Positions 1,369 to 61,199 of a stretch of 64,000 bases of DNA are shown here, piece after piece (position 1 is the first letter of the stretch; every line of letters starts with the position of its first letter). Source of the stretch: Squalus acanthias. Lineage: Eukaryota. Both the position numbers and the translations under genes were made by a program. The notes beneath the pieces are model-generated. The model was not told where the DNA came from. It worked only from the letters and a program-made list of their open reading frames with translations, and searched no databases. The DNA lies in NCBI GenBank assembly GCA_030390025.1, contig CM059431.1:155188001-155252000 (forward strand), in the 5' to 3' direction.

Positions 1369-1414
1369 GTAGAAACATAGAAACATAGAAAATAGGTACA
1401 GGAGTAGACCATTC

Positions 1415-3805: not shown

Positions 3806-3811
3806 CAGCGT

Positions 3812-8690: not shown

Positions 8691-9934
8691 TCTTCAGAGT
8701 TCAGCTTGAAGAAGAGGAGGAAAGGAAGGGCAAAGGGCCAATTAGAATTGCTGCAGGTGGGGGACTGAATAAATGCTTGGGGAGAGTGTTAGGGACGGAG
8801 GAATATTGTAGAGCTGCAGGCGTTTACAGGTGCAATGTGACATTCAGGCATTGAGCAGGTGGAATCAAAATACATCTGCGGAAGGGAAGTTACGGCAGAA
8901 TAAGACATAGAGCTGATGGGAATGGAAACCGGGGAAGAAAGAAAAATGGATCCGGCTGCGAATGGAAGCAAACATTAAAACTAAGGAGCTGAATAAGCGA
9001 GAGCAACAGACAGGTAAAAGGCATTGATTTCAGGCACGATGCAGTGGGAGCCGGAAACAGACTGGGAGCAGCAGCACAGAGAAGCAGGAAAGGAAAGAGA
9101 CACAGAGGAATCACAAGATGTAACATGAACTTTTAACATTCATATTAAATAAAAATTCTGGTTCGCAATTTAATTTAATGTTCAGAGTTTCTCACTCTCA
9201 CAATAAATTGAATCCGTTGGCAAACAGTTAAAAGAAAGATTAAATTAAAATGGGATATTACATCACCAGCACTACAAGTTAACAAGCCGATGAAGCGGAG
9301 TTTAACCCACACATTTGCTCAGTAGTTCCAGTACGTGAAACTTGGAGCCTGAAAACCATGAATTCGACCAACCTGATAAAGGCCCAAACTGTTACTCATT
9401 AACTAGAGACTATTTGCCGGAGATTATAATCATCGATCTTTGTCCCTCGCTATCTCTTCCCTTTCATAGTCCTTTAATACGTATTTTTATGGTGAGTAAT
9501 TAAATTAGATCCCGGCTACAGAACCCGGTTTCACTTTGGGGTCTTCTGAACAGCAGATGGAAGAGCTAGGATAATATGTATTCATTGTTACCACACAGAG
9601 GAGTAATGACTTTGCCTAAAAGTTGAATTCTTTCAATTTGCATCAGACCATTTGTGATTCAGATCGAGATTTGCACCAGGAATCAGCCCGATGAGGGATT
9701 TTAATGATCAGGCTGATCTTGACTGAAGGTTGTGTTCATGACTGTGTTGTGTAACTGACCTTCAACCAGGGTGTGTTCATTAACCGCCAGAACCCACAAC
9801 GCTAATTAACCCAGAAGCTCTGGAACTGCACAAAGGAACCGCAGCACAAGGTAAGGACGTCGAATATTCTGAGCACAATTATGGTGTTTTAATTCAACGA
9901 AATTGCCGTTTATTTGTGAAGTAGTGCAAAGAAA

Positions 9935-28220: not shown

Positions 28221-28349
28221 AGATTGACGATACTGCAATAATGGTCGAACAAGACAAGATAATCGTCACGGTTGCAGTGTCTGTTGCAATACTGCTGGGA
28301 GCAGTAGGAGCTCGGGAGACGTGTTTTTGGCATAACTGGAAAAATTGCG
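28221..28349 (+). CDS. Candidate transmembrane exon of a single-pass membrane protein (gene or pseudogene)
   Basis: tttacag|...|gtaag, 129 nt, phase 1-1, no stop: (E)IDDTAIMVEQDKIIVTVAVSVAILLGAVGARETCFWHNWKNC, with an 18-aa hydrophobic stretch. Confidence 0.5.
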
Positions 28350-29572: not shown

Positions 29573-32335
29573 CTGTGGAGATGCAAGTTGTTGTTTTGAC
29601 TTATGCGACTTTTTTCTTTGTTATACTAGGTATCAAACAGCAGATAACTGAGTTTTACAAGTTCTCAAACTTAGTTCTAAATTAATTCCGAAAAATAACT
29701 TCAACTATATTTTGGAGAAATTACTGATCCGAGAATGAAACTACATTTCCCCAGTGGGGAAAGGAAAGGACACTGACTGAGAGTTTGATTGGACGCACGT
29801 GTGTGAACACACATAGCGAGACACGCGCACAAGTGGAGAATTGTGATCGTAAAACAGCAGTTAAATCTACCACTTGTATATTAATGGACAATTCTGAAAT
29901 TGTCATACCCCTAAATATATTCCAGAAATCAATGCTGTGCATCATTTCACTGTTTAACGTTACATGATTCATAATATTATTCATAAGTGTTAATATTAGT
30001 GGAACAGTGGTAAGTGACCTCACCTCCTGCAGTGCTGATTCCTCAGGTGCAGACACCATGAGAGATATGGTCAATATATTCAAATAGAAGCACCAAACAG
30101 GACACATCTCCAGTAACACACGGACAATGCCACAGCCCATAGAGAGCAGAGGGATCACATCCAGACATATATTGTGTGTGGATAGATATCATAGTCATAA
30201 ACTACCAGAATTTAATATCAAAATTCAGCAAATCCAAAATATTAAACAAAAATCGGTGAATAAATATAATATTATACCGCCAGAGTGTAAAACCCAGTGA
30301 AGGATCATTCAATTCAGCAGTAATCACAAGCTCCATATTTCCCTGCAGAATATTCTCTACCTCAGGAATAAGGCTGGTTTTGGCGTGCACCGTGAGTAAA
30401 GCTTACAAACGGGCACTCTCAGTGCGGAGTCCCGGCCGACGGGAGCACATCTGGAACTCGGTTGTGGAGATCAACAACAAATTGTATTTATATAGCGCGT
30501 CGATAGGAGTAAAACGTCCCAAATGCGCTTCACAGGTGTATTATAAGACACAAACTTGATACCGAGCCAGTTAAGGAGAAATTAGGATAGATCATTAAAA
30601 GCTTGGTCAAAGAGGTAGGTTTTAAGGAGCGACTTAAAGAAGCAAAGTGAAGTGGAGAGTCGGAGAGCTTTAGGGAGGGATTTCCAGAGCTTAGGGCCCA
30701 TGCAACAGATGGTACGGCCACCAATGCTTGAGCGATTATTATCAGGGATGCTCAAGAGGTCAGAATTATAGGAGCGCATTTTTCTCGCGTGGGGGGGGGG
30801 GGATTTTTATTCGTTTACGGGATGTGGGCGTCGCTGGAAAGGCCAGCATTTATTGCCCATCCCTTTTTGCCCTTGAGAAGGTGCTGGTGACCTGCCTTCT
30901 TGAAAAGCTGCAGTCCGTGTGGTGAAGATACTCCCATAGTGCTGTTATTTACAGAGTTCCAGGATTTTGATCCAGCGACGATGAAGGATCAGCGATATAC
31001 TTCTAAGTCAGGATGGTGTGTGACTTGAAGGGGAACCTGGAGGTGGTGGTGTTCCCATGCGCCTGCTGTCCTTGTCCTTCTAGGTGGTAGAGGTCGCGGG
31101 TTTGGGAGGGGCTGCAAAAATATCCTTGGCGAGTTGCTGCAGTGCATCTTCTCGATGATACACACTGCAGCCACAGTACGCCAGTGGCGGAGGGAGTGAA
31201 TGTTTAACGTGGTGGATGGGGTGCCAATCAAGCGGGCTGCTTTGTCCTGGATTGTGTCGAGGTTCTTGAGTGTTGCTGGAGCTGCACTTATCGAGGCAAA
31301 TGGAGAATATTCCATCACACTCCTTACTTGTGACTTGTAGATGATGAAAAGGTGTTGGGGAGTCAGAGGTGATACACTCGCGGCAGAATACCTAGCCTCT
31401 GACCTGCGCTTGTTGCCACAGTTTTTATGTGGCTGATCTAGTTAAGTTTCTGGTCAACGGTTACCCCCAGGGTATTGATGGTTGGAGATTCGGCGTTGAA
31501 TGTCAAGGGGAGGTGATTAGACTCTCACTTGTTGGAGATAGTCATTGCCGGGCACTTCTGTGGCACGAATGTGCCTGCCAATTATCAGCACAAGCCTGAA
31601 CGTCGTCCAGGTCTTGTTGCATGCGGGCATGGACTGCTAAATTATATTAGGAATTGTGAATGGCACTGAACACTGTGCAGTCATCAGCGAACATCCCCAT
31701 TTCTCACCTGATGTTGGAGGGAAGGTAATTGATGAAGCAGCTGAAGATGGTTGGGTCTAGGACACGGCCCTGAGGAACTCCTGCAGCGATGTCCTGGGGC
31801 TGTGATGATTGAGCTTCAATCACCAGAACCATCTTCCTTTGCGCTAGGTATGACTCCAGCAATGGAGCGTTTCCCCCCGAATCCCATTGACTTCAGTTTT
31901 ACTAGGACTCCTTGATGCCAGACTCGGTCAAATGCTGCCTTGATGTCAAGGGCAGTTACTCTCACCTCACCTCTGGAATTCAGCTCATTTGTCCATGTTT
32001 GAAACAAGGCTGTGATGAGTTCGGGAGGCCAGTGGTCTTGGCGGATTCCGAACAGGGCAACAGTGAGCAGGTTATTGGTGAGTTAGTGCCGCTTGATAGC
32101 AATATCGATGACACATTCAATCACATGGCTGATGATTGAGAGTAGACTGATCGGGCGGTAACTGGCTGGGTTGGATTTGCCCGGCTTTTTGTGGACAGGA
32201 CATACCTGGGCAGTTTACTAGTCGGATAGATGCCAGTGTTATAGCTGTACTGGAACAGCTTGGCTAGAGGCGCGTCTAGTTCTGGAGCACAAGTCTTCAG
32301 CACGATAGCCGGGATGTTGTCGGGGCCCATAGCCT
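29573..32335 (+). repeat. Segmental duplication block X, copy 1 (paralogous to about 54921-57660)
   Basis: Unique sequence, an L2 tail, a G-run and a LINE fragment occur in the same order with the same junctions in both copies. Confidence 0.9.
30805..32335 (-). mobile_element. Non-LTR retrotransposon (CR1/Crack-like clade) 3' portion
   Basis: ALDIKAAFDRVWHQG and MEYSP...LDTIQDKAARLIG on the minus strand. Confidence 0.8.
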
Positions 32336-42290: not shown

Positions 42291-42749
42291 AATGAACTAA
42301 GTTTGAGGGGAAAGGGGGATGTGGAAGGATTGTGATAGGGATTTGGGAAAGCAGTATATCCGAAAGAGCAGAGATGAAAGGAGGTATGACGAATGGAGAG
42401 AGCGATCAGGTAGGTTTAGAGAGAAAAGGAAAAAAGAGGAGAAAAATGTGGAAATAGAAGTGAACGGCTCGGGCTGGAGCGGCATACAAAATACACACTC
42501 AAGATCAGCAGGACTCACTGGATTTCACTGGGCAGCTGTCTGTGTCACACCTGATCTGGAGTGGTGATGGTAACAGTCGGGAAATGCTGGTAACTAGAGC
42601 TAATAGTTTGCTGTACTGATGGGTGAGGAGGGCCTTGATATCATGTTTAATAAGGCAACGTTCTGCTTCTCATCTTAATATTTCTGCCTAACCGTCCTAT
42701 TAATATATTTATTAAAGAGCATCAGAACCTGGGAGCGCCTGTCACCGGC

Positions 42750-42813
42750 ATGGCCGAAGTTCGAAACACGGAAAAGGATCCAACAATTTCAGGAATAATG
42801 AGAAATAACAGAG
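42750..42813 (+). CDS. Candidate first coding exon of an NLR (NACHT-LRR)-like gene
   Basis: ggcATGG strong Kozak context; MAEVRNTEKDPTISGIMRNNR+G; phase-1 donor GAG|gtaggt; upstream AT/pyrimidine tract with AG acceptors at 42717 and 42725. Confidence 0.6.
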
Positions 42814-43089
42814 GTAGGTTCACATAACTCATTAAAATATAATTTCTGCAACGACAGAGGGTGCAGATCTCGTGCCGAACCTGCAGCTCACACAGGAAGA
42901 GGGAACAGGACATGAGCTGAGTAAAAAATGGGAAGTGAGTGACCCTCTCGAGGGGCACCGCAGTCACAGGTGCAGGGAGCCCTGAGTATTGGAACGGACC
43001 AATACATACCTGTTTTTTGGGGACAGTAAGCTAGATAGAGCTAGTGACTCGAAGGAGGGTTTTCAAGAGCAACAGTGTGCCTCCAGAGA

Positions 43090-43780
43090 GCAGGAGGCCA
43101 CCCCGAGTTGGGCAGAGGTGAGAGGCATTTGGGAACAAAAATAGGATAGCGATAGTGGTGGGAGATTCTATAGTCAGGTGAATAGACAGACTCGTCTTCA
43201 GCCCTGAGCAGGTGCCAATTGGGAATATGCATCCCTGGTGCCAGAGAGAAGAACAATCTGGGAAGGAAAGGAGAGGAGAAATTACCCATGGTCGGAATCA
43301 GTAACACGGATAGAAATACGTTTATAGAGGTAATATTGAGACTGAGGCACTAGATTAAAGACAAGGTCTCAAGCTGGAGATCTCTGGATTGTTTTGCACT
43401 GGGCCGCTTCATGAGGGAAATATGAGGCAGGTCAATGTGAGACTGCTTGGCTGGAGTAAGGGGCAAGAGTTCAAATTCTTGGGGCAGGAAGGTGAGATCA
43501 GGGAAAAGGGAAGGGACGGCCGCGATCTGAACCCACCAACAACAATGGTTTCACAGAATAGTTGAATGAAGCAGTGGGAAGGGTATCAGCTGATATGATT
43601 AGTGTGACAAATATCCGCATCTGAGACTACAGAGTGGAATTAATGAAGCTGTTAGAGCTGAAACAGTATATTTATGAAATACTGAAAAATTTTGAGCAGG
43701 AAAAAGGAAGGTTGTTTTCGAATAGTGATAGATGAAGTCACCTGATGTTAAAAAAAATGAAATAAACAAGTGTCAATATT
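43090..43780 (+). mobile_element. Very old CR1 ORF1 (esterase-like) remnant, including duplication block Z copy 2
   Basis: Degenerate gcgatagtggtgggagattctatagtcagg (AIVVGDSIVR) and ...ccctggtgccag. Confidence 0.6.
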
Positions 43781-46700
43781 CGGTTGCAGTAAAATCAGCG
43801 GGCGCGGCTGGAGAGCACCAGACTTCGGAGGCAGTAAAAGCAGCGGGAGCGGCTGGAGAGCGCCAGACTCCGGGGAAAGGAAAAACAGCGGGAGCGGCTG
43901 GAGAGCGCGATACTTCGGCGGCAGTAAAAGCAGCGGGAGCGGCTGGAGAGCGCAAGACTCCGGGGAAAGTAAATGCAGCGGGAGCGGCTGGCGAGCGCGA
44001 GAATTCGGGGACAGTAAAAGCAGCGGTAGCGGCTAGAGAGCGCGAGACTTCGGCGGCAGAAAAAGCAGCGGGAGCGGCTGGAGAGCGCGAGACTTCGGCG
44101 GCAGTAAAACCAGCGGGAGCGGCTGGGGAGCGCGAGACTTCGGCGGCAGAAAAAGCAGCGGGAGCGGTTGGAGAGCGCAAGACTTCGGCGGCAGAAAAAG
44201 GAGCGGGAGCGGCTGAGATACAAAATACCGGTGAGTGTAAAGGAGTAAAAAGTAATCGAAGTGTCACGTCAACAGTAAGCAGGTAAATGATTGGTTGATG
44301 AGTATTTCTCTATTTCTCGCTTTTTTCCAAACTTGGGCGTCTAAATTTAAGTACCTTGGTGTAGATTAAAAGATATACGTGTTCCAATGTGACGTCGGCG
44401 CAGGGGAAGAAGCTGATTAGTGAATAGTGATTGAGCGTTGTTTTTTCTTCAATTTTAAGTCTATTTTTTTAAGGTAGTTCATAGTTAAGGTAGTTCGGGA
44501 GACCCAGAATCCGAGAGTTTAAATTTGAGGTAAGAGTTTTTTAATTAAGGTTATGGCAGGGTACCTCAGTCCCGTGCGTTGCACGTCCTGCAGCATGTGG
44601 GAATTCCTAGACGCTTCTTGCAGTCAGGATGACCACATGTGCAGTAAGTGCCAGTGGTTTGGCCAACTGGAGATCCGGTTTTCGGAGCTCGAGCATCAGC
44701 TGGAGGCACTGCGGTGTATCCGCGAGCTTAGACTTACATGGATAGCACGTTTTTGGACGTGGTTACGCCGCAGAATTATAAAGTGCAGTCAGAGAGGGAA
44801 TGGTAGTTCACCAGTCAGAAGAAGGGGGGCAGGCCGGTAGTCAGGAGAGCCCCAGAGTGCATCTCACTCAACAACTGTTATTCTGTGTAGGAAATGCGTG
44901 AAATTGACGGTTCCTCTGGGGAGAGCAGCCAGAGCCAAGTTCACGGCACTGTGGGTGGCTCAGCTGCACAAGGGGGGAGAAGTAAAAGTGGAAGTGCAAT
45001 AGTGGTAGGATACTCAATAGTGAGGGGTGCAGACAGTCGTTTCTGCGGCCGAAGAAGTGACTCCAGGATGGTAAGTTGCGTCCGTCGTGCCAGGGTCAAG
45101 AATGTAACTGAACGGCTGCAGGGCATTCTGAAGGGGCCGTGCGAAAAGTCCGAGGTCGTGGTTCATATTTGTACCAACTACATAGTTAGAAAGATAGATG
45201 AGGTCCTGCAACAAGAATTTAGGGAGCTAGGTAGCAGATTAAAAAGCAGGACCGAAAAGGTTGAAATCTCTGGATTACTCCCGGTGCCACGTGCTAGTGA
45301 GTATAGGAATAGGAGGATAGAGCAAATTAATGCAAGGCGAAAGAGTTGGTGCAGGAGGGAGGGCTTTAGTTTCCTGGATCATTGTGTCTGTTTCTGGAAA
45401 GGTGGGCCCTGTAGAAGTCGGACGGGTTGCATCAGGACCAATATCCTTGCGGGGAGGTTTGCTAGTGCTGTTAGGGGGAATTTAAACTAACTTGGCAGTG
45501 GGGTGGGATACGGCGTGGAGCTATAGTAGGGGGTGATGCGCAGCCAAATATAGAGGAAAAAACAAGTCAGTTTGGAAGTCAGAGCAAATATGTAACGGCA
45601 CAAGTGAGTATGGCAAATCTGGCGGGCATTCATTTCAATGCAAGTAGTCTTGCGAGTAAGGCATATAAATTGAAGTTGTTGATGAACACATGGGAGTATG
45701 ATATTGTTGCTATCACGGAGACAAGGTTGAGGGAGTGCCAGGACTGGCATCTCATTATTACGGGGTATAGAATCTTCAGGCGAGACAGATGTGGGTGTAA
45801 AAGAGGAGGGGGTGTCGCAATATTAATCAAGGAGTCAATTACTGCAGTAAGGAGGGATGATATCATAGCAGGTTCCTCTAATGAGGCCATATGGGTAGAA
45901 CTTAAAAACAAAAAGGGGGCAAGCACTTTCCTAGGAGAGTACAATAGGCCCCCAAACATTCAGGGGCGATAGAGGAACAGATATGTAGGCAAATCTCAGA
46001 TAAATGTAGATGTAATAGGGTAATAATAGTAGTTGTTTTCAACTTCCCCAATAGTAACTGGGATAGTCAGAGTGTGAAAGGCTTAGAGGGTGCTGAATTC
46101 TTAAAGTGCATCCACGAGAGCTTTTTGAGCCAACTTGTAGAAATTCCTACAAGAGAGGGGGCGGTACTGGAACTAATTCTAGGGAATGTAGCGGGGCAAG
46201 TGGTAGAAGTGTCAGTAGGAGAGCATTATGGTGACAGTGACCGTAATACGGTGAGATTTAAGGTAGTCATGGAAAAGGACAAAGATGTACCGGAGATAAA
46301 GATTCTAAATTGGGGGAATGCCGATTTTAATTTGAGAAGGGAGGATCTGGCCAAAGTGGACTGGGATCAGCTACTAGTAGGAAAATCCATATCAGAGCAG
46401 TGGGAGTTATTCAGAAAGGAAATAGAGAGAGTACAGTTCCAACATATTCCCGTATAGGTCAAGGGTGGGACCAACAAGGCCAGGGAACCCTGGATGTCAA
46501 GGGATATACAAGAATGGATTTAGGAAAAAAATGGAGCCTTTTGGCAGATACAAAGGACCAAAAACAGTGGAAGCCCTACAGGAGTATATAATGTGCAGAG
46601 GGGTACTTAAGAAAGAAATTAGGAATGCGAATAGGGGTCAATAAAGAACACTGGTGTGCAAACTAAAGGAATATCCCAAGGTGTTTTATAAGAATATTAG

Positions 46701-47213
46701 CTATAGGAAGGACGTGATTGCTTTGGAAAGGGTGCAGAGGAGATTCACCAGGATGTTAATTGGGCCAGAGGGCTTTAGCTATGAAGAGATACTTGACTGG
46801 CTGGGGTTGTTTTCCATAGAGCAGCAAAGGCTGAGGGGGGAACTGATTGAGGTGTACAAAATTAAAAGGGGAATAGATAGGGTATATAGAAAGGAACTTT
46901 TCCCCTTAGAAGCGGGGTCAATAACCAGATGCCATAGTTTCAACGTAAGTGGCAGGGGGTTTAGAGGGGATTTGAGGAAAAAAATATTCACACAGAGGGT
47001 GGTTGGAATCTGGAATTCACTGCCTGAAAGGGTGGCAGAGGCAGGAACCCTCACAACATTCAACAAGCATTTAGATGATCACTTGAAAGGCCATAGCATA
47101 CAAGGCTAGGGACCAAGTGCTGGAAAATGGGATAAGAATAGACAGGGCTTGATGGCGGGCGAAGGCACGATGGCCGAAGGGCATCTTTTTGTGCTGTATA
47201 ACTCTATGACTCT
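43781..47213 (+). mobile_element. CR1 LINE with 5' monomers, ORF1 and APE, but most of RT deleted
   Basis: ORF1 pieces 44553..45490 (CTSCSMWE, VVVHICTN) and endonuclease 45604-46457 (DIVAITET). The sequence jumps near 46698 to the ORF2 C-terminus. Tail actctatgactct. Confidence 0.92.
43786..44220 (+). repeat. About 9.5 copies of a 45-bp monomer in the CR1 5' UTR
   Basis: Unit gcagtaaaagcagcgggagcggctggagagcgcgagacttcggcg. Confidence 0.93.
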
Positions 47214-47347
47214 AATCCAAAGAATTGGATTTAGGATTGACTGTTGTGCCTGTAAATGTACAAGTCATTCCAAAGACACTTGGAAAGTCAGAGGCATGAA
47301 AGATGTGATTTAGTATCTATAGGACAGGGCCTGGGATTTCACAGGAC

Positions 47348-49068
47348 TGCTGATGATACAAAGCTTGCTGGGACAGTAAGTAGTGACGAGAACAAACAGA
47401 GTCTGCAAAGTGATATAGATAGACTGATTGAGTGGGCAGTAGGGTGGCAAATCGATTACAATGTAGGGAAATGTGAGGTTATTCACTTTGTTATGAAGAA
47501 TGGAAAAACAGATTTCTTTTAAAATTGAGAGAAACTTTCAAATATTATTGTATTCAGAGTGATTTGGGGTTCCTCGTGCAAGAAACACAGAAAACTAGCA
47601 TGCAATAAGGAAGGAAAATTATATGTTGGCCTTTATTGCAATGTGTGTGGAGTATAATGATAAGGAAGTCTTGCTACAATTGTACAGGTTCTTGATTAGA
47701 CCACAACTGGAGTACTGTGCACAGTTTTGGTCTCCTTATCTAAGAAAGGATATACTTGCCTTGGAGGCTGTGCATTGAAGGTTCACCAGATTGAATCCTG
47801 GGATGAGAGGACTGTCCTATGATGACAGATTGTGTAGAATGGACCTATAATCTCTGGAGTTCAGAAGCATGAGAGGTGATCTTATTCAAACATACAAGAT
47901 CTAAAGGGGATGGACAGGGTAGATGCTGAGATTTTGTTTCCCCCGCTTGGAGTGTCTAGAAGTATGGGGCATAGTATAAGGATACGTGGTAGGCCATTTA
48001 AGACAGACATGATGACAAACTTCTTCACTCAGAGGGTTGTGAATCTTTGGAACTCTCTGCCCCAGAGGGCTGTGAATGCTGAGTCTTTGAATATATTCAA
48101 GGCTGAGATACATAGATTTTTGGAATCTTGGGGAATCAAGGGATAAAGAGATGGGGCGGGAAAGTAAAACTGCGATCGAGGACAGGCATGACTTAATTGA
48201 ATGACTGAGCATGCCGATAAGGCCGGTAGGCCTACTCCTGCTCTTGTTTCGTATGTACTTTGTAGACAGGGGTAATGTAGTAGTAGTAATATATCTGTAT
48301 TTATAAAATGCCTTTGATATGGTATCACATAATAATCTAATGAATGAGGTGAATGCATGCGGAGTCGTGGAACACGTAGCAGAATGGATAGCGAGGTGGC
48401 TGCAAGAGAGAAATCAGAGAGTAAGGGTAAAGGGTAACTATTCAGAGTGGCAGATGGTGGATAGTGGGGTTCCACAAGGATCAATGCTGGGACCACAGTT
48501 GTTCACAATTTATTTCACTATTTAGAATTTCGAATCAAAAACACATTTTCTAAACTTGTAGACAACATCAAATTGAGAGGGAAAGTCAATACTGAGGAGG
48601 ACTTCAAGAAATTACAAGAATACATGAATAAACTTGCAGAATGGGCATATATTTGGCAAATGAATTTCAACATAGATTAGTGTGATGTATTATATTTAGG
48701 TAAGAAAAGTAAGACGTCACATATTTTTTCGGAAATAAGAATTTATATGGGGCAGAGGAGGAAAGGGATATCGGAGTACCAATACACAAATCATTAAAAG
48801 TTACGATGCAGGTCAATAAGGCCATAACAAAAGCAACCAATCACAGGGGTTAAATTGTAGATGGATAGAATTGGAAAGTAGAGAAGTTATGCTAAACTTT
48901 TATCGAACCTTGGTTAGACCACACTTGGAGTACTGTGTACAAATTCTGGCCATATCATAGAAAAAGCATATAGAGGCACTGGAGTAGGTGCAAGAAAGAT
49001 TTACAGGGATGCTACCAAAACTGCGAGGTTATACCAATCCGGAAAGGTTGAACAGGCAGGGTCTCTTA
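47348..49068 (+). mobile_element. Two adjacent CR1 fragments (47348-48258 and 48260-49068)
   Basis: ADDTKL through to the 3' UTR, then a second degenerate RT fragment. Confidence 0.82.
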
Positions 49069-49084
49069 ACGTTAAAGTGTCATT

Positions 49085-51962
49085 GCCGAGGGGGTGGGGC
49101 TGGGTCGGTGGGTAGACGGGGCTGGGTCGGTGGTGGGACGGGGTTGGTTTGCTGAAAGGGCGGGGCTGGGTCGGTTGGGCGGCGGGGGATTGTTTTCTGA
49201 GGGGGCGGGGCTGGGTCGGTGGGTAGACGGGGCTGGGTCGGTGGTGGGGCGGGGTTGGATTGCTGAAATGGCGGGGTCTGGGTCGTTGGGGGGCCGGGGG
49301 ATTGATTTCTGAGGGGGCGCGGAAGGGTCGGAGGGTAGACGGGGCTGGGTCGGTGGTGGGGCGGGGTTGGATTGCTAAAAAGGGCGGGGCTCGGTCGGTG
49401 GGGAGGCGGGGATTGTTTTCTGAGGGTGCTGGGCTGGGTCGGTTGTTAGAATGATCTGTGTCAGTTTGGGGTGGAGATGTATATCTGTGGTGTCGGAGAT
49501 TGGTGGGGATGGATTGCTGAGGGTTCGGTTGGGGGGTCAGGGGTGAGGTGGGGTTTGCTGATGGATGACTAAGGGGGCGGGGCTGAGTCGGTGTGGGGCA
49601 TGGCTGGGGCGTTGGGGGGTGGGGATTGATTGCTGACGGATCGGGGCTGGGTCGGTGGGTTGTGAGTTTGGGTCGATAGGGGATGGGAATGGATTTCTGA
49701 GGGGGCGTGGTTGGGTCTGTGGGGGAGCGGAGCTCGGTCGGTGGGGCGTGGGCCTGGATTGCTTGGGTCGTGGCTGAGTCGGTGGCTGGAAGGGGTTGGT
49801 CGGTAGGGTCTTGGGATGATTTGCTGTTGGGGAACGTTGGGTTCGGTGAATAGATGGGGCGGCGTCGGTGGGGGCTGGGGATGATTTGTCGAGGGGGCGG
49901 CTCTGGGTCGATGTGGGGGCGGGGATGGGTCGGTGTGGGGGCGGGGATTGGTCGGTGTGGGGGCGGGGATGGGTCGGTCGGGCTTCGGGATGGATTGCTG
50001 TGGGGAAGGGGCTGGGTCGGTGGGTGGACGGTGCTTGGTCGGTGGTGGGGTGGAGATGGGTCGGTGAGGGTGCAGGGATGAGTCGGTGGAGGCTGGGGAT
50101 GATTTGCTGAGGAGGAGGCTCTGGGTCAGTGGGGGGGATGTGATGGATTGCTCTGGGGGCGGGGCTGGGTCAGTGGTGGGTGTGGAGTTTTTGACCGTGG
50201 TTGGTCGGTGTCACTGGTTAGACAGGGCTGGGTCGGAGAGGGTTGGGGATGATTTGCTGAGAGTGCGGGGCTGGGTCGGAGGGGGGTGGTGGAGGATTGC
50301 TGAAGTGACGAGGCTGGGTCGGTGGGGGAGCGGGGCGAGATTGGTGAGCGGGCGTGGCTTGGTCAGTGGATGTTGAGGATGGATTGTTCAGGGGTGGGGC
50401 TCGGTCTGTGGGGGCGGGGCTGTGGCGCTGTGGGGTGCGAATGGATTGCTGAGGGGGCGGGGCTTTGTCGGTGTGGGAGGCGGGGCTGTGTCGGTGGGTG
50501 GTGTGGATGAGTTGCTGACGGGGCGGGGCTGGTACGGTAGGGTGCGGGGCTGGGTCGGGTGCGGTGGGGAGAGTTTGCTCGCGGTGTGTCTGTGTCGGTG
50601 GGGGTCGAGGATTGGTCGGTGAGGGGTGCGAATGGAATCGCTCAAGGGGCAGGGCTGTGTCGTGGAGCAGACGGTGATGGTTCGGTACGGTTTGGGGATG
50701 GATTTCAGAGGGGGCGGTGCTGTGTCGGTGGGTAGACGGGGCTGGGTCGGTGGGTGTTGGTGTTGGATTGCTGGGGGGCGGGGCTGGGTCATTGAGTATG
50801 CGGGGCTGGGTCAATGGGATGTGGGGATCGATTTCTGAAGGGGCGAGGCTGGGTCATTGAGTATGCGGGGCTGGTTCGCTGGTGTGTAGGGATCGGTTGC
50901 TGAGGGGGCGGGGCTGGGTCATTGAGTGTGCAGGGCTGGGTCGGTGGGGTGTGTGGATCGATTTCTGAGGGGGCGGGGATGGGTCATTGAGTATGCGGGG
51001 CTGGGTCAGTGGGGTGTGGGGATCGATTGCTGAGGGTGCGGGGCTGGGTCATTGAGTATGCGTGGCTGGGTCGGTGGGGTGTGTGGATCGATTGCTGAGG
51101 GGGCGGGGCTGGGTCGGTGGTGTGGCGGGGATGTTTCGGGCGGGGGCGGGGATTGATTGCTGAGGTTGCGAGGCTGGTTTGGTTGGTAGACGGGGATGGG
51201 TCGGAGGGAATACTGGACTGGGTCGGTGGTTGTTGGTGTTGGATTGCTGAGGGGGCGGGGCATGTGTCATTGAGTATGCGGGGCTGGGTCAGTGGGCTGT
51301 GGGGATCGATTTCTGAGGGGGCGAAGCTGGGTCATTGATTATTCGGGGCTGGGTCGGTGGGTTGTGGGCATCGATTGCTGAGGGGGCGGGGCTGGGTCGG
51401 TGGTGTGGCGGGGATGTTTTAGGGCGGGGGCGGGGATTGATTGCTGAGGTTGCGGGGCTGGTTTGGTTGATAGACGGGGCTTGGTCGGTGGGAATACTGG
51501 GCTGGGTCACTGGGGGGTGGGATTGATTTGCTGAGGGGTTCGGTGCTGGGTCGGTGGTTAGACGGTTCTGGTCGCTGGGGTTTGGGGATGATTTGATGAG
51601 GGTGCAGAGCTGAGTGGGTTGGTTAGCTGGGTCGGTTGGAGGTGGGGATGTATTGCTGATGGGCGGGGCTAGTTCGCTGGGTAGACGGGGCTGGGTCGGT
51701 GGTGTTGAGGAAGGTTCACTGGAGTGGCAGAGTGATTCTGTTTCAGTGGTTTGTGGGGTATTGAACAGTGGTGTGCGGTGCTGGGTCAGGGGGTGTAGGT
51801 CCTGGTCAGTGGGGTGTGGGGTGGGTCAGTGGGGTGTGGGGCTGGGTCAGTGGGGTTTGGAGTGTTCAGTGGGGTGTGGGGCTGGGTCAGTGGGGCTTCG
51901 ATGTTTGGCTGTGTCAGTGGGATGGATGAACAAAAGCACTTGAACTACACAGGGTCAGTGGG
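49085..51962 (+). repeat. G-rich degenerate minisatellite, about 2.9 kb
   Basis: Repeats of gattgctgagggggcggggctgggtcggtgg; the right end grades into gggctgggtcagtggggtgt. Confidence 0.92.
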
Positions 51963-52404
51963 TGGGCAAGCTCGAGGTTACCGAACCTCACTGCAAAGAA
52001 AAGATGTATTTGAGGATAAGCTAGTTAAGCAAGAGGAAGAAAGGAATTGGAAGATTCTGCTGATAGGGTTAGATAAACAGGGACGGGAGGAGGTTCAGGT
52101 GGAGTATAAACACATGGCATGAACCAGTTGAGACGAATGGACTGTTTCTGAGCTGTACATTCTATGCAATTCTCTGTATTAAAAAAGGGAAGTGACGGCG
52201 CTGCATTTTCTGAAGCAGTTTTGTAAAAGGAGAATTACGGAAGCTTTGCTATAATTCTGTAACCTGCAACACACAAACCCCTCCGCTTCAAATGGGAGAT
52301 TCCAGTTGCCCAGCCAGAACACGTGGAATGTTTTGTCAAAGTAAAATTAGTTTAACAATGCCTGTACCATTAAACGCCAAATGAGACATGTGTATTTCAG
52401 AGTA

Positions 52405-53500
52405 TCCTGGGCAATTTGGCACATTGGATCCAAAATTGGCTTCGTGGCTGGAGTCAGAGCGTGATGGTCGAATGTTGTTTTTGTGACTGGAAGCCTGTGT
52501 CCAGTAGTGTACTGCAGGGATCGGTGCTGGGTCTCTTGCTGTTTGTAGTTTACATTATTGATTTAGATCTGAATGTAGGAGGTATGATCAGTAAGTTTGC
52601 AGATGACACGAAAATTGGTGGGGTGGTAAATAGCGAGGAGGGAAGGCTCAGGCTACAGGACACTATAGACGGGTTGATCAGATGGGCAGAACAGTGGCAA
52701 ATGGAACTTAACCCTGAAAAGAGTGAGGTGATGAATTTTGGGAGGACTAACAAGGCAAGGGAATACACAATGAATGGTAGGACCCGAGGAAGGACAGAGG
52801 ATCAGAGGGACCTTGGTGTGCATGTACATAGATCCCTGAAGGCAGCACGACAGGTTGATAAGGTGGTTAAAAAGGCATATGGGATACTTGCCTTCATTAG
52901 CCGAGGCATAGAATTTAAGAGCAGGGAGGTTATGATGGAGCTGTGCAAAACGCTAGTTAGGCCACAGCTGGAATACTGTGTGCAGTTCTGTTCGCTACAC
53001 TATAGGAAGGATGTGATTGCATTGGAGAGGCTGCAGAGGAGACTTACCAGGATGTTACCTGGGCTGAAGCGCTTCAGCTAGAAACTGGACAGGCTGCGGT
53101 TGTTTTCCTTAGAGCAGATATGACTGAGGGGAGACCTGATTGAGGTGCACAAAATTATGAGGGGCATAGATAGGGTACATTGAAAGGAACATTTCCCCTT
53201 AGTAGAGTGGTCAATAACCAGGGGGCATAGTTTCAAAGTAAGGGGCAGGAGGTTTAGAGGGGATTTGAGGAAAAACATTTTCACCCAGAGTTTGGTTGGA
53301 ATCTGGAACACACTGTTTGAAAGGGTGGCAGAGGGAGGAACCCTCACAACATTCAAGAAACATTTAGATGAGCACCTGAAACGCCATAGCTTAAAAGGCT
53401 ACGGACCAAGTGCTGGAAAATGGGATTCAAATAGACAGGGCATGATGGCCGCGCGGTCCCGAAGGGCCTCTTTCTGTGCTGTATAACTCTATGACTCTGT
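52405..53500 (+). mobile_element. CR1 LINE 3' portion
   Basis: ORF 52416..53081 (FADDTKIGG); tail actctatgactct. Confidence 0.9.
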
Positions 53501-53519
53501 GAGAGAGTTTGATCCAAGG

Positions 53520-54940
53520 GATGCACACAGTTTACCCCGTGGCTGAAGAGTTAGACATGTGTATCTCCATCTCCAGCCTCCCTTTCCCCTCAATGTTTTG
53601 TCGCCTCACGAATCTCTGCCCATCTTTCTCAGAACTTCATATTTGAATCTCTACAATCGGGTTTCTGCTCCTGACACAGCATTGAAATGACAATAATAAA
53701 AGTCAGAAATGAAACGTTCTATGCCTGCGAAAGTGGTAAATTATCCCCCCTCATTTTCCTTGACCTCTGCAGCCTTTACACGGTCCAGCACAACATCCTC
53801 CACCGCCTCTCCTCCGTTGTCCAGCTCAGTTGGACTGCCCCTGCTTGGGTCCACTTTTAACCATCCAGTCGTACCCAGAGAATTTTCATAAAGGGCTTCA
53901 CTTCCCTCTGCCGCACTGTTACCCTGGAGCCTCCCGTAGATCCACTCTCTCCCCCTCCTATTTCTCATCTGCATGCTGCCCATTGGAGACATTATCCGAA
54001 GACAAGTGATCAGCTTTCACATGTACGCCAACACTTATCCGCTCCGCCTCTCCACCACCTCTCCCGCCCCCTCCACTGACTCTGCTTTCTCACGCTGCTT
54101 GTCCGACAGCCAGTCTGAGATATGCTACTCGTTTCTCCAAATAAACATTGGTAAGACCGAAGACATGGTCTTCGACCACCGCCACAAATTGTCTTCCCTT
54201 GTGGTGATTCCGTCCCCGTCCAAGCCAGTGTCTCGGATTGAACCAGAAAGTTTACAACCTCAGCGTTCTATATGACGATAAGCTGAGCTTCCGACCCGAT
54301 ATTCTCTCCATCACAAACACCTCCTGCTTCCACCTCCGTAACATCACCCATCTTTATCCCTGCTTCAGTCCATCTGCTGCTGAAATCCTCATCCTTGCTT
54401 TGATCACCTGTAGACTCGATATTTCTAGTGCTCTCCGGGTCGGCTTTGTCATTTCACTCTCGGTAAACTTGGGTGTATCCAAAATGCTGCTCAACGATCA
54501 CCCCTGTCCTTCCTAACCTACATTGGCTCCCGGTCCCCCAGCACCTCCAAATTAACATTCGCATCCTCGTTTAAATCCCTTCATGGTCCTTTTACTTCCT
54601 GTCTCTGTCACATCCGTCAGCCGTACAAGACCCCACCACCAAGGTCTCTCTATTCCTCCGGCTCTGGGCGCGAGTGCATTTCTCCATCTCCTCAGTCCAT
54701 CTATGGCGACTGTGTCATCGGCTGTCCGGGTTCTCTTATCTGAAATCCCCCACCTAACGCTCTCCAGCTTCTTCCACTCCTACTAAGATGCTCCTAAACC
54801 CGATTTATTTTACCAAAATTTTGGACCACTCCACCTTCTAGCTCCTTTCTTCAGCACCCATATTTTATCTGATTCGGCTCCTGTGAAGCACCTTGGGATG
54901 TTTGTCGATGTTTAAAGCGCTGTGTAAAGGCAAGTTATTT
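53520..54940 (+). mobile_element. Old L2-type LINE
   Basis: MLPIGDIIRRQVISFHMYA, LQINIGKTE, CFHLRNI, and an L2 3' UTR. Confidence 0.78.
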
Positions 54941-57660
54941 TTGTGACTTATGTGTTTATTATACTAGTTATGAAAAATCAGAAAAATGAATATTATAAGA
55001 TTTCAAAATTATTTCTCAATTAATTCCGGAAAATAACTTCAACTATAGTTTCGAGAAATTACTGAGCCGAGACTGAAACTACATTTCCGCAGTTGGGAAA
55101 GGATAGGACGCGGCTAATAGTTTTATTGTACATACGTGTGTGGGCGCACACACACATCGAGATACGCGCACAAGTGAAGAATTGTGATTGTGAAATAGCA
55201 GTCAAATCTACCACTTGTATATTTATGGCCAAATCTGAGATTGTCAGACCCCTAAATATATTCCAGAAATCAATGTTGTGCATCGCCTCACAGTTTAAAG
55301 TTACATGATTATTAACATTATTCATTAATGTTAATATTAGTGGATCAGCGGTAAACGTCCTCAACGTCCTACAGTGCTCATCAGTCAGGTGCTGACACCA
55401 TGAGAGATATGGTCAATATATTCAAATAGAAGCAACAACCAGGGCACATCTCCATGAACACATGGACAATGTCACAGCCCATAGAGATAGAAGACATCAC
55501 ACCCAGCTGTATATTGTGTGTGGAGATATATCATACTCATAAGCTAGCAGAATTTAATGTCAAAGTTCAGCAAATCCGAATTATTAAACAAAATCTGTGA
55601 ATAAATATATTATACCACCAGACTGTAAAACCGTGTGAAGGATCATTTAATTCATCAATGATCACCCGCTCCATATTTCCCAGCTGAATTTTCTCCACCT
55701 CAGAAATAAGGCTGGTTTTCGCCTGCACTGTGTGAGTAAATCTCACCAATGGGCACTCCCAGTGCGGAGTCCTGGCCGACGGCAGCCTATCTGGAACTCC
55801 GTGGTGGAGATCAACAACACCAACGTGTATTTATATAGCGCTTCTAACGTAGTAAAGCGTCCCAACGCGCTTCACAGGAGTATTATATGACAAACAATTG
55901 ACACCAAACCACATGAGGACAAATTAGGGCAGATGACTAAAAGCTTGGTCAAAGAGGAAGGTTTCAAGGAGCGAGGAAGGGTTTAAGGAAGTTAATGGAG
56001 GGAATTCCAGAGCTTAGGGCCTAGGGAAGAGAAGGCAGCGCCAGCTGTGGTTGAGCGAATATATTCAGGGATGCTCAAGAGGGCAGTATTATCGGAGCGT
56101 ATTTATCTCGGAGGTGGGGGTGTGGTGGGGGGCATTTCTTTAATCGTTAATGGGATGTGGGCGTCGCTGGCAAGGACAGAATTTATTGGCCATCCCTAAT
56201 TGACCTTGAGAAGTTGATGATGAGTTGCCTTCTTGAAACGCTGCTGTCGGTGGTGTGGCGAAGGTACTCGCACAGAACTGTTAGGTAGGGAGTTCCAGGA
56301 TTTTGACCCAGCGACGATGAACGAACGGCAATATGTTTCTAAGTTAGGATGGTGTGTGACTTGGAGAGGAACTTGGAGGCAATGGTGTTCCCATGCGCTT
56401 GCAACCCTTGTCCTTCTAGATGGCAGAGGTCGTGGGTTTGGGAGGTGCTGCCGAAGAATTATTGGCGAGTTCCTGCAGTGCATTTTGTAGATGGTACAGA
56501 CTGCAGCCACGGTACGACGGTGGAGGAGGGAGTGAATGTTTAAGTTGATGGATGGGCTGCCAATCAAGCGGGCAACTTTGTCCTGGATTGTGTCGAGCTT
56601 CTTGGGTGTAGTTGGAGCTGCACTCATCCAGGGAAATGGAGAGTATTACATAACAATCCTTACCTGTTCCTTGTAGATGGTGGAAAGGATTTGGGGAGTC
56701 AGGAGGCGATACACTCGCCTTAGAGTACCTAGCCTCTAACCTGCTTTTATTGCCACAATATTTATGTGGCTGGTCCAGTTAAGTTTCTGGTCAATTGTGA
56801 TCCCAGGATGTTGATGGTGGGGGATTCGGCGATGGTAATGTCGTTGAATGTCAATGGAGGTGGTTCGACTCTGGCTTGTTGGAGATAGTCATTGCCTGGC
56901 ACTTCTGTGGAGCGAACCTGCCACTTATCAGCTCAGGTCTTGTTGCATGCTAGCCTGGACAACTTCATTACCTGAGGAGTTGTGAATGGCGCTGATCATG
57001 GTACATTCATCAGCGAATATACCCATTTCTGACTTTATGTTGGAGTGAAGTTCATTGATGAAGCAGCTGAGAATGGTTGGTCCTCGGTCTCTGCCCTGAG
57101 TAACTCCTGCAGCGATGTCGTGGGGCTGTGATGATTGACCTTCAAATACCACAACCATCTTCCTTTGTGCTTGGTATGTCTCCAACCAGTGGAGTGTTTT
57201 CCCCCCGATTCCCATTGACTTCAGTTTGAGTAAGTGTCCTTGATGCCACACTCGGTCAAATACTGCCTTGATGTGAAGGGCAGTCATTCTCACCTCACCT
57301 CTGGAATTTAGCTCATTTTTCCATGTTTGGACAAAGGCTATAATGAGATTGGGAGGCGAGTGGTCTTTGCGGAACGCAAACTGGGCATCAGTGAGCAGGT
57401 TATTGGTGATTAAGTGCTGCTTGATAGCACGGTAGAAGATGCCTAGCTGACTGCTCATGATTGACAGTAGACTGATGGGGCAGTAATTGGCAAGTTTGAT
57501 TTGTCCTGCTTTTTGTGGACAGGACACACTTGCGCAGTTTTCCAGTCGTACAGATGCCAGTGTTGTAGCTGTACTGGAACAGTTTACCTGGAGGCATGGC
57601 TAGTTCTGGAGCACAAGTCTTCAGCACGATAGCTGGGATGTTGTCGGGGCCTGTTGCCTT
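54921..57660 (+). repeat. Segmental duplication block X, copy 2 (includes a minus-strand CR1/Crack-like LINE at about 56140-57660)
   Basis: Colinear with 29573-32335. Confidence 0.9.
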
Positions 57661-57669
57661 TGCTGAAAG

Positions 57670-60110
57670 CGATTGGAGGTAGGGAGGTGCAAAGCTATCT
57701 AGGGAATTGAAAACAAGGTTGAGAATTTTGAAATCGAGGCGTTTTTTTTACCGGGAGCCAATGTAGGTCAGCGAGGACAGGGGTGATGGGTGAACATTAA
57801 TGTTGCGACTTTGGACACAAGCACCCGAGATTTGGATGATGTGAAGTTTACTTAGGATAGAACGTGAGAGACCTGCCAGGAGTGCGTTGGAATATTCAAG
57901 TCTAGAGGTACCAAGGCATGGATGAAGGTTTCAGCAGCAGATGAGCTGAGGGAGGGGTGAAGGTGGGTGATGTTATGGGGGTGGAAATAGGCGGTCTTTG
58001 TTATGCCGCGGATATGTGGTCGGAAACTCATTTCAGGATCAAATATGACACCAAGGTTGCGAACAGTGAGGTATGGGCTCACAGATGTTAGGGAGAGGGA
58101 TGGAGTTGGCAGGGATCAAAAACAATGTCTTCCCAATATTTAACTGGAGAAAATTGGATGTCGGTCAAGCAGTCTGACAATTTAGAGTTAGTGGAGGGTT
58201 CGAGAGAAGAGGGGTGAGGTAGAGCTGGGTATCGTCAGCGTACATTTGCAAGGATGGAGGAGTCGAGGGTTGTTTGTTTTGTGGTGGAGGGGCGGTGATG
58301 ACGGCAGATTGGAAGGAGAGGGGGACAGTACCCGAGGAGAGAGAACCGTTAACAATGTCAGCTTACAAAAGGAGCCAGAAAAGGAAGTTGGGTGATCAGC
58401 AGTTTGGTGGGAATAGGGTCGAGGGAGCAGGAAGTGAGTCTCATGGACAAGATGAGCGCGAAGAGGTCAGGTGGAGAGATCGGAGAGAAGCTGGAGAAAG
58501 TTGCGATTTCAGGGCTATGGCAGGGGGAGCCAAAAGGGAAGGTTTGGCCTGGTGGGCTAGGGAAAGGAAGAGAAGTGGCTGAGGCCACTGATTGCATGCT
58601 CTCAATCTTAGAGTAAAGAAGTTCCTGAGCTCCTCGCACTTGTTGTTGGAGGTGAGGAATGAGGAGACGTGGAAAGGGGCTTAAGAAGTTGGTTCGCAAT
58701 GGAGAATAGAAGCCAGGGTTTAGCTTTGCATTCCAGAATTATTCTGAAATAGTGAGAAATTTTGGCAGAAGAGAGCTGGACCCGATAATGCTTTATCTGG
58801 TTCAGCCAGATCTGGCAGCGAATGACTTAAACAGTTTTCCACCATATCCTTTCAAGTCTGCATCGCTTGGACTCAAGGAAGTGAAGATGAGTGCCGGACC
58901 AGTTTAAACAGCCAGGGTGAGACTACGGCATCGAAGGTGGTGGTGAGTGTATGGTAGAGCAGATTGGTAGGAGCAAAAATGTTGTGGTGGATGGAGTCCA
59001 AGGGCTGGATAGTTGGGATTTCGTAAGTCCATTTGTAAGAGAGTTGGGAGAGAGTTTTTTTTCCTGGGGCAGCATCAGAATGAAGTAGTCTTTGGGGTGA
59101 AGGGGATGTAGATGTAGAGCGATGGAACGAAATGGTCAGAGATCGCTTTACTAGCGATTGACACGATGGGAGTAGCGAGGCCACGGGAGATGGCAAGGTG
59201 GAGGCTGTGTACATGATTATGGTTTGGGGAGTTTACTTGGAGTTAGAGATTAAGGGCAGATAGGAGGACAGTGAATTCAGAGCAGAGAGAGCATGATGAA
59301 TTGCGAGGGAGGTTGAAATCACCGAGGATGAGAAGTCGCTCGGTGCAATTGCTGAGGGAAGAAAGCAGTGACGCTATCTCGGTGAGAAATTATAATGGTA
59401 CTTGGGTGGGCGGGAGAGAACGAGAACTTTAAATGAGCAGTGAGAGATGTGGAATAAGGTGAGATGCTCAAAAGGAGAAAGAACGTGATGGAGGAGTAGG
59501 GTAACAGATCAAGGCGTGATTTGCTGATGAGAACCACACTGTCGCCATCGCAGTCTGGGCATGTCAAGTGGTGAAAGGTATAGCCAGGCGGGGAGGCTTC
59601 ACTTAAGGGTAAGGCTTCTACACGCCTCATCCAATTTTCCATCAGGGCCATGATGTCGATGCTCTCAATCACGATAAGCTCATGGTTGGAAAGGATCTGG
59701 TTCGCAAGAGAATGACCCTGACGGAGGAAAATGGGGAGAGGTTCGGTGATGTCTAACCAACCGCCAGTGTCCACAGTCTCAGCGCTGGGAGGAGGGAGTT
59801 GGACGGGAAGGAGATTGAGAAGATTAGACCCCAGCGGGAGTTCTGGGCGGGAAGTTCGGGGGAAGAGTTGCATAATACAGTTGTCGTTGCTGCTCGTGAG
59901 GAGGCAGCAACGAGTGCCACGGTGGGCCTTTCGGAGGATGTCAAGAGAGGCACAGAGGGAAGCTGTAGACTTATCTAAGATGGACGGCAGCAGGAGAGTA
60001 GGAAGGTCGAAGAGCAATGAATTGTTGGTGCAGGAATTTGGGAGTGCAGTGCATCTGAGATAGGAGAAATGAAAGGAGGAATAATGACAGGAGAGAAGGA
60101 AGGAATGAGT
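57670..60110 (-). mobile_element. L2-type LINE including the endonuclease region, with deletions
   Basis: DIMALMENW...EASPPGYTFHH (APE), SCSLDPIPTKLL, TVRNLGVIFD. Confidence 0.85.
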
Positions 60111-60926
60111 TTGCATTTACTGTCTGCTTTCTTTAAATATCTGTGCATTATTAATTAGCTCTTTCGGCAATCGATCGAGAGTTACAACTATTTCTAATTG
60201 CTCAGCAGCATCTGGTGATTCCAAGCAATAAATGTCGACCTGGATTCTCAGATCACCGACTGCAACCATCATATGTTCATTTTCTGGATATATGTTAACA
60301 TATGAATATTTGCTCGTGATTTATCCACGTTTTTGAGAGGTTTAGACTCGATTCCTTAAACGACATTTGTGCACTGCCAGATGGAAACTCCAGAGCTCGA
60401 CTGCTTCAATTCATTAGTTCAACCACATTTCCACTTATCCTTAATCCCCTTCGTCAGTGATCGACATTCACTTGTTATCCCAGACAATTTGTGAAAGACT
60501 CCTGCTCATCTACAATTCCGTTTGCGGTCTCGAGCGTCTTAGCTCTACAGTCATCTTCAAAAACCTTCTTTTATTTCTTGTCCATCCTCTCCCTTTGCTG
60601 TGGTCCCCAGATTATTGGTTCCTCTGCTCCGGACTCCAACAAAGTAGTTAGCACCACTGCCTGGAATCCGTTGCTATGGGCTTCCAATCTTTACTTCCTA
60701 CTTTCTTTAAACAACCTCCACATGTTGCAAGTACTAGATCGTTTCTCTTAACACTACGAAAATGAGGCAGCTTTAACTCTAAATTCCTGCTCTGTGCGGC
60801 GCCATTGGCCGTCTCACTGTTTGAAAGGCTCTAAAGAAAAGCTGCTGCTCTAAAAGTTAGTTTAAATTATTCATTGCTTCAAAGCAAATATTGTATTTTA
60901 ACCTGTTCTGATTTACACTTTTACAG

Positions 60927-61096
60927 AAAAATCAGATACTAACATGTTACTAATGTTGGCGAGCAACACGGATATCCAGCTTGGAAGAATTATCGGCTGC
61001 TACCGTCAGAGTCTAGAATCGTCAATTGAAGAATTCGTGGAAGCTGTTAGTCAGTCGCTCTTAGATGCAAAAGTCTTTACTGAAACAATTCATAAG
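60927..61096 (+). CDS. Candidate second coding exon of the NLR-like gene: first half of an N-terminal death-fold/CARD-like domain
   Basis: Strong acceptor ctgatttacacttttacag|, phase 1 in, phase 0 out at AAG|gtatgc, 170 nt with no stop: (E)KSDTNMLLMLASNTDIQLGRIIGCYRQSLESSIEEFVEAVSQSLLDAKVFTETIHK. Resembles the shark NLR N-terminal pattern as I recall it (D.QL....FYR.RLE.AIEE.V..VS..L....F....H). Confidence 0.7.
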
Positions 61097-61199
61097 GTAT
61101 GCTACATATATGTTGGAATTGCCGAAATGTCCTCCTAAAATTTCGTCGGGTTGGTGGTAGATTATTCAAGTCGGTCTGGAACGGCATGTCTTTGCTGGT

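Follow-up and report, generated by a model that had tools for sequence, protein, structure and literature searches.

A predicted tandem CARD array between transmembrane-type exons in an NLR cluster of Squalus acanthias

Introduction

What kind of gene is opened by two short exons that splice in silico, across an 18-kb intron, into what reads as the start of an NLR protein? The pair lies on the forward strand of a 64,000-nt stretch of the Squalus acanthias genome (C7:155,188,001-155,252,000, CM059431.1; hereafter the window, whose numbering is carried on downstream as "extended" positions). A preliminary description proposed a divergent NLR-like N-terminus, with the remainder of a CARD-like domain and the NACHT and LRR exons beyond the window, or else a stand-alone CARD-like adaptor or a pseudogene. 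To our knowledge, each vertebrate sensor characterised so far has one CARD or two. At this locus the two exons are followed by five predicted CARD units and a transmembrane (TM)-type exon, and we tentatively favour, with a confidence just short of even, the reading that this five-CARD cassette is a young product of exon shuffling and represents relaxed raw material of a birth-and-death gene cluster. One study finds no clear NLRP orthologues in cartilaginous fishes and describes an expanded NLRP-related NLR family in the whale shark, for which birth-and-death turnover was suggested (PMC8455134).

Results

Two exons across an 18-kb intron are homologous to the start of shark NLR genes

Both exons, their splice sites and phases (Table 1), and their open, in-frame join of 78 residues were re-derived as first described. 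From the ATG of the first exon (E1), which stands in the context CCGGCATGG, 64 nt lead to a phase-1 donor (GTAGGT), and the second exon (E2) has a pyrimidine-rich AG acceptor and the donor GTATGC. The ATG exon had been taken for the first exon. Because it has its own AG acceptor at 42716-17, preceded by a pyrimidine tract, E1 is instead a 96-nt internal exon, and a non-coding exon at 9770 and a TM-type exon at 28221 lie upstream of it. An ATG-GT micro-exon at 42619 was dropped for lack of conservation.

A search of the same genome with the E1 region scored 40 matches among 143 candidates, and in 27 of 30 E1-like copies the exon length is divisible by three. Of 142 candidates scored with the E2 peptide, 114 matched at E ≤ 0.001; 112 of these 114 fall in C7:153.7-159.3 Mb, and 9 contain stops. 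A canonical NACHT-LRR gene at C7:157.73 Mb contains homologues of E1 (81% at the nucleotide level) and E2 (32% at the amino acid level, E 0.002) in the same order. This order, across an intron of 12-22 kb, is also kept in all four sister arrays examined at the 5′ end, with E1 truncated in one, and the Mustelus model XP_078058250.1 starts with a homologous E1-E2 exon pair. Such homology and conserved order argue strongly against a coincidence of two unrelated fragments, which we regard as hardly credible even though the join is known from sequence alone and the intron also holds 13 other crude acceptor-like sites. No RNA data set was listed for E2; three runs from the same species, compared with 42500-61400, consisted of contigs that cover repeats very deeply and look like DNA, and among the 15 of 200 joints displayed none links 42813 to 60927, a result that speaks neither for nor against the join. 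By these comparisons, E1 is a genuine homologue of the start exon of shark NLR genes, and E2 is one of the exon for the first half of their predicted CARD. The chondrichthyan NLR-type N-terminus is supported by the canonical gene and by shark and ray protein matches; a lack of similarity to NLR or death-fold proteins, together with a lack of junction reads, had been named as grounds for abandoning it, and similarity to NLR N-termini and, in models of homologues, to CARD folds was found instead.

The domain is predicted to be a CARD

A profile of nine copies of the exon encoding the second half of the domain (exon 3) matched 45 proteins. The 18 that were looked up by name are all chondrichthyan (shark, ray and chimaera models); five of the 45 (P0008, P0010, P0011, P0041 and P0045) look like short repeat-driven matches and were set aside. 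The best matches were tandem-domain models of Scyliorhinus torazame, Mustelus asterias and Cetorhinus maximus, to which both CARD exons are 45-58% identical in the best blocks. The shark and ray records used for comparison are unreviewed automatic models named "uncharacterized", "hypothetical" or "NLRP3-like". Together with the window array, the tandem-CARD models form one clade (support 100/100) separate from canonical NLRs, so that the copy is divergent in the sense of belonging to a distinct tandem-CARD clade, not in the sense of a decayed canonical copy.

The fold was assessed on models of homologues, namely XP_078390056.1 (C. maximus), whose repeat 2 is 56% and 50% identical to the window's two CARD exons, and one canonical relative. 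The AlphaFold2 model of XP_078390056.1 had its best CARD match at Z 12.3 (root-mean-square deviation (rmsd) 2.0, 96 aligned), with death domains at Z 8.0 or lower. According to a warning issued with the tool, values below about 13 can reflect a common helical arrangement, but the top rows are nearly all CARDs matched over the whole domain. The model of the canonical relative resembled the ARC CARD (TM-score 0.82, rmsd 1.2) with weak E-values, and Foldseek returned no match at E ≤ 0.001. Pfam PF00619 (CARD) matched 3 of 14 homologues, one of them over the cut-off (30.3 against 23.9), single half-domain exons had no Pfam match, and PDB-sequence and Atlas searches with single exons gave nothing usable. 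E2, the TM exon and the TM-CARD region of Mustelus were also run in word-based protein searches; these added no relatives, which is weak evidence. An annexin match (E 0.09) was rejected as chance. Both homologue models thus agree with the helical death-fold or CARD-like domain proposed at the outset, and we predict a CARD-type six-helix death fold; since the models are those of homologues and not of the window's own spliced domain, the call rests on homology.

The CARD module was also matched in the chimaera Callorhinchus milii (P0047, XP_042202419.1). If this match is orthologous, the module is older than the shark-chimaera split.

Five CARD units and a transmembrane-type exon precede the nearest NACHT exon

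The second half of the domain, expected beyond position 64000 as a phase-0 exon, was located at extended 68535, and four further CARD units follow. The five exon pairs lie in genomic duplications of about 7 kb that are 91-94% identical and bear independent insertions. No convincing linker exon was found within the CARD units, and about 110 units of this kind occur within 5.5 Mb of C7. After the fifth CARD stands a second TM-type exon with a strong phase-1 donor, and the junction from CARD intron to TM exon is common to all five arrays mapped.

These findings bear directly on the simplest expectation, an ordinary one-CARD NLR with its NACHT exon just past the window, or a stand-alone single CARD. 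The order and phases of exons 1, 2 and 3 are those of canonical NLRs A and B, and read-through beyond exon 3, with a stop 47 codons on, would allow a protein of one CARD. Against this, four more open units and the TM-type exon follow, all five units are followed by the same read-through sequence, and no NACHT exon appears on the same strand until extended 329.7 kb, so that we consider either form very improbable.

Beyond the array stand nine diverged ATG-type (E1-like) exons in a row, seven of them open multiples of three (two of these without an ATG), one without an acceptor and one frameshifted; they could serve as alternative start exons or in-frame linkers. Eight further CARD units and an intact NACHT-LRR part lie 205-275 kb past E2. 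The NACHT exon at extended 329.7 kb is open (Pfam NACHT, 114.5 bits) and is followed by three open LRR-region exons; two neighbouring NACHT exons are broken, and at least 95 NACHT matches were scored among 481 candidates in the genome. NACHT and LRR exons do therefore lie beyond the window as anticipated, but not after the first CARD, because four CARD units and the TM exon come first.

The order of the locus is accordingly a non-coding exon (E0), TM, ATG exon, five two-exon CARDs, TM, nine ATG-type exons, eight CARDs, NACHT and LRR. Sister arrays mapped at both ends show E0, TM, E1, CARDs, TM, E1s, CARD and NACHT; as recent duplicates of about 95% identity, they give no independent support. 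On present comparisons, the window locus belongs to a chondrichthyan NLR locus family.

The TM-CARD-NACHT order also occurs at C2044 of the same genome, where two 228-nt TM exons are followed by one CARD and an open NACHT. Diverged 228-nt TM exons in phase 1-1 were seen at L163-L168 and at C2044:261,753-286,650, and an I-x-Y-x-x-L in the tail of the 228-nt exon resembles what we take to be an immunoreceptor tyrosine-based inhibitory motif. At C7:156.64-156.67 Mb, TM and CARD exons alternate.

Replacement changes predominate in the five-CARD array

Private changes in the five CARD units comprise 22 replacement and 3 silent changes. This pattern rejects an omega of 0.43 (P 0.0003) as well as 0.57, and fits neutrality (P 0.06) or omega > 1. 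The dN/dS is 1.52 (0.72-4.98) for the five units versus 0.43 (0.29-0.64) for the eight NACHT-linked units. Before close exons were counted, five intron-only fragments in the exon-2 set and five exon-3 copies below 88% identity were dropped; the resulting 28 + 28 exons gave an N/S of 0.94 (0.60-1.49) and contained 2 stops, 1 frameshift and changes at 4 splice dinucleotides. Two of the latter affect the window's array (unit 1 donor GG, unit 3 acceptor TG), and two sister arrays carry several lesions. Deeper comparisons are purifying, at 0.54 versus the eight-CARD array and 0.57 versus NLR B; the domain has therefore long been constrained, and the subfamily has recently been relaxed or diversifying.

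The favoured reading of a young, relaxed cassette would explain these values as follows. Tandem duplication and unequal crossing-over probably made the five-CARD cassette, which likely drifts without purifying selection and would be dispensable and heading to pseudogene status. All modules are phase-1 symmetric, and crossing-over in introns would therefore add or swap CARD units and anchors with the frame kept. A transcript from the shared 5′ exon would span the 18-kb intron, chain the five CARDs and, most simply, end at the second TM exon after 684 codons without a NACHT. This frame needs the unit 1 donor at +172, the +199 donor being GG, and an AG in unit 3 nine bases downstream of the usual site, which is TG. 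Its product would be a membrane-tethered CARD scaffold or decoy acting through homotypic CARD contacts, an established behaviour of death folds, and the downstream eight-CARD NACHT-LRR part would be the constrained receptor.

Several observations weigh against relaxation. The ten CARD exons contain no stops or indels, the 12 exons of the 684-codon model contain no frame-breaker, and both damaged splice sites have in-frame alternatives within 27 nt that leave the frame intact; these intact frames are a weak counterpoint, because only 1.2 stops would be expected. The replacement excess is also expected under diversifying selection (own omega 2.7, interval 0.8-14), and replacement variants in exons are rarer than flank variants (0.31 versus 0.45 per site, P 0.003), as are silent ones (0.33). 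A nine-unit sister array has no lesion in these exons, the NACHT-linked array likewise has one changed acceptor (1 of 32 sites), and models of like build are known in other sharks. A pseudogene, as allowed for at the outset, is still a plausible reading of the five-CARD array.

Upstream exons and promoter-like elements

Aligned copies of the non-coding exon E0 keep the AG in 16 of 16 cases and the GT in 15 of 16. E0 precedes the ATG exon in all five canonical NLR loci fetched, which were picked because E0 and ATG-exon matches stood close together, and we infer that it is a 5′ untranslated region (UTR) exon. From 9.9 kb up to extended 374 kb, a profile search detected no other copy. One canonical NLR has no E0 within the 28.7 kb fetched, and E0 is therefore no sure marker of a gene boundary. 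Other copies were seen at extended -14.6 kb, 374 kb and 377 kb (C7:155,160,000-155,175,000; 155,559,000-155,570,000), the latter two ahead of the next CARD/NACHT gene. A block 5′ of E0 (8900-9450) is conserved in canonical NLR loci, includes a possible, conserved donor GTAAAAGG near 9014, and may hold the true first exon and promoter.

The in-frame ATG of the TM exons is conserved in 17 of 18 copies. The upstream TM exon of the window is degenerate, with charged residues at the helix end, the lowest best 19-residue hydropathy among 11 close copies (2.27), and private changes that alter 8 amino acids versus 2 silent ones. In silico it splices in frame to the exon at 42718 and to that at 60927. 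No Ig-like or signal-peptide exon was recognised 5′ of 28221 in open reading frame (ORF) lists inspected by eye or by tblastn queries taken from the N-terminal ends of two models. A palindrome, CGCCACCTGGTGGC (25990-26005), lies about 2 kb 5′ of this TM exon and presumably resembles a CTCF site.

The conserved element at 29742-29900 contains motifs that we take to be ZNF143-like, CCAAT and E-box. It is a possible internal promoter, a role made uncertain by its presence in only two of the six canonical loci seen; its candidacy as the promoter of the gene was downgraded once E0 had been found. The copy within the 18-kb intron occupies the same place in three of the four sister arrays mapped, and the element recurs further downstream.

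Possible membrane-anchored poly-CARD builds

The array would also accommodate a second account, in which sharks have assembled membrane-anchored poly-CARD immune proteins from shuffled phase-1 exons, and the locus encodes either a five-CARD scaffold without a sensor or an NLR of 13 CARDs whose signal anchor is optional. We regard this account as possible though somewhat doubtful. If it is true, the seed of a CARD filament is built into the polypeptide itself, and the number of CARDs and their location depend on alternative splicing. In silico, the five-CARD/TM frame has no NACHT, and the NACHT at extended 329.7 kb can be reached in frame.

A working NACHT-less gene would run from the ATG exon through five CARDs into the second TM exon and yield a 684-residue membrane-tethered poly-CARD with a 26-residue tail, under diversifying selection. 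By analogy with MAVS and CARD19, which it would resemble in build, such a protein would nucleate or soak up CARD filaments at a membrane. The 684-codon frame is open and has a single hydrophobic helix near its end (2.71 versus at most 1.29 elsewhere), AATAAA signals stand about 630 and 710 nt past the stop, all five arrays have the same CARD-to-TM junction, and in XP_078390056.1 two CARDs of the same clade precede a TM helix. A tail-anchored build, with one TM helix near the C-terminus, a short tail and no hydrophobic segment at the N-terminus, is predicted in silico if reading starts at the 42750 ATG and continues through the second TM exon; it is lost if splicing uses the donor of that exon or takes in the upstream TM exon. 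The strong phase-1 donor, the conserved in-frame ATG and the basic residues after the helix fit a first or internal TM exon better than a last one, and two splice sites need rescue. Moreover, the TM exon of the locus is weakly similar to the TM helices of the Cetorhinus and Mustelus models (for Cetorhinus, block-shuffle P 0.001-0.025, with no match listed by a profile search), the Cetorhinus RefSeq model is automatic, and splicing at the window locus is itself read from DNA. We therefore hold a working gene of this form to be rather unlikely.

In the other form, a single 324-kb gene, E0 would head a transcript of 5 + 8 = 13 CARDs and the NACHT-LRR part that skips the second TM exon. With the first TM exon as an optional signal anchor, the product would be an NLR fixed to a membrane that has its own CARD filament seed. 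No second E0 stands before the end of the NACHT-LRR part, and the chain stays open over 1,608 codons, its phase-1 end fitting the phase-1 AG at the NACHT exon, which like the three LRR-region exons is open. The TM-CARD-NACHT order recurs at C2044 and in the Mustelus model XP_078087540.1 (TM, three same-clade CARDs, NACHT, LRR). However, such a transcript must skip a TM exon with good splice sites and pass several internal promoter-like elements and nine ATG-type exons, and it would unite five and eight CARDs that are sharply unlike in constraint. In addition, E0 is an unsure boundary marker, as noted above, and the TM-CARD region of Mustelus, used as a query, found nothing but itself among 7,999 candidates scored. 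This gene is, in our judgement, unlikely.

Comparison with known systems

The nearest counterparts, all in the same clade as the window array, are XP_078390056.1 (Cetorhinus maximus; CARD × 2-TM), XP_078087540.1 (Mustelus asterias; TM-CARD × 3-NACHT-LRR) and GCB66031.1 (Scyliorhinus torazame; about 3.5 CARDs, no NACHT). In common with the window locus, the shark models have CARDs in tandem and a TM helix with Cys-Cys at its end; the window locus differs in its five (up to 13) CARDs, TM exons on both sides and extra ATG-type linker exons. NOD2 and RIG-I/MDA5 are innate sensors that likewise begin with tandem CARDs, in their case two and fixed in number, whereas the window array has five in a variable exon array; RIG-I structures also came up in the fold comparisons. 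ICEBERG, a structure match of the modelled domain, functions as a CARD-only decoy; decoys of this type are, like the window array, NACHT-less and duplication-born in an immune gene cluster, but ICEBERG is a single soluble CARD derived from caspase-1, whereas the window array is NLR-derived and has multiple CARDs and TM exons.

MAVS and CARD19/BinCARD combine a CARD with a TM helix and no NACHT, like the 684-codon frame, and are the only integral mitochondrial CARD proteins named in the accessible parts of PMC8997538. They have one CARD each, and were compared by fold with the Cetorhinus model (MAVS CARD, Z 8.6; BinCARD, Z 10.8). The whale shark family is similar as a chondrichthyan NLR expansion, for which the accessible parts of PMC8455134 give no N-terminal domain, tandem CARDs or anchors. 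For sponge NLR models, a predicted N-terminal TM signal appears in a table footnote of PMC3879445. In the literature on shark NLRs and CARDs outside supplements and subscription journals, no paper on a poly-CARD build was found.

If about 110 CARD units are exchanged in frame as cassettes, along with anchors and start exons, the cluster would reveal how inflammasome-type signalling is re-engineered in cartilaginous fishes. It would also offer a natural test of whether chain-linked CARDs lower the threshold of filament nucleation or act as decoys. Even with a decaying copy, a relaxed five-CARD array beside a constrained eight-CARD neighbour would show birth-and-death turnover at the level of domains.

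Table 1 Exons and conserved elements of the window and of the sequence downstream
Feature	Position	Strand	Description
E0, non-coding exon	9770..9850	+	81 nt, no ATG, family-wide, 5′-UTR-type
Upstream TM-type exon	28221..28349	+	129 nt, phase 1-1, in-frame ATG 28241, donor GTAAGA, read-through stop 28400
Promoter-like conserved element	29742..29900	+	About 200 bp 5′ of the ATG exon in one canonical NLR
E1, first exon of the preliminary description	42718..42813	+	96 nt, phase 1-1, ATG at 42750
Intron	42814..60926	+	18,113 nt; LINE (long interspersed nuclear element) reverse-transcriptase remnants, simple repeats, second promoter-like element
Second copy of promoter-like element	55039..55241	+	84% identical, inside intron; own E1 deleted
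E2, first half of CARD unit 1	60927..61096	+	170 nt, phase 1 to phase 0
Second half of CARD unit 1	extended 68535	+	Phase-0 exon, 4.5 kb beyond window
Second half of unit 1 and four further CARD units	extended 68535-110128	+	Beyond window
Second TM-type exon	extended 112115	+	129 nt, hydrophobic helix then basic residues; follows CARD five
Nine ATG-type (E1-like) exons in a row	extended 120,482-206,323 (C7:155.308-155.394 Mb)		Diverged

Repeats and other contents of the window

Tandem repeats of 69 bp (20835-21247) and 45 bp (43779-44215) front LINE ORF1-like frames on either strand, and we take them to be LINE 5′ ends and not coding repeats. The 45-bp repeat ORF at 43732 had no match in a Pfam search and is likewise presumably a LINE 5′ end. 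Long G/T-rich minisatellites with periods of 22-130 bp and strong GC skew occupy 35951-37235 and 49088-51895. On the reverse strand, 1270-3812 holds a remnant resembling a long terminal repeat (LTR) retroelement, split into several frames; one frame of 480 codons matches Pfam RVT_1, and the frames beside it presumably correspond to gag and RNase H pieces.

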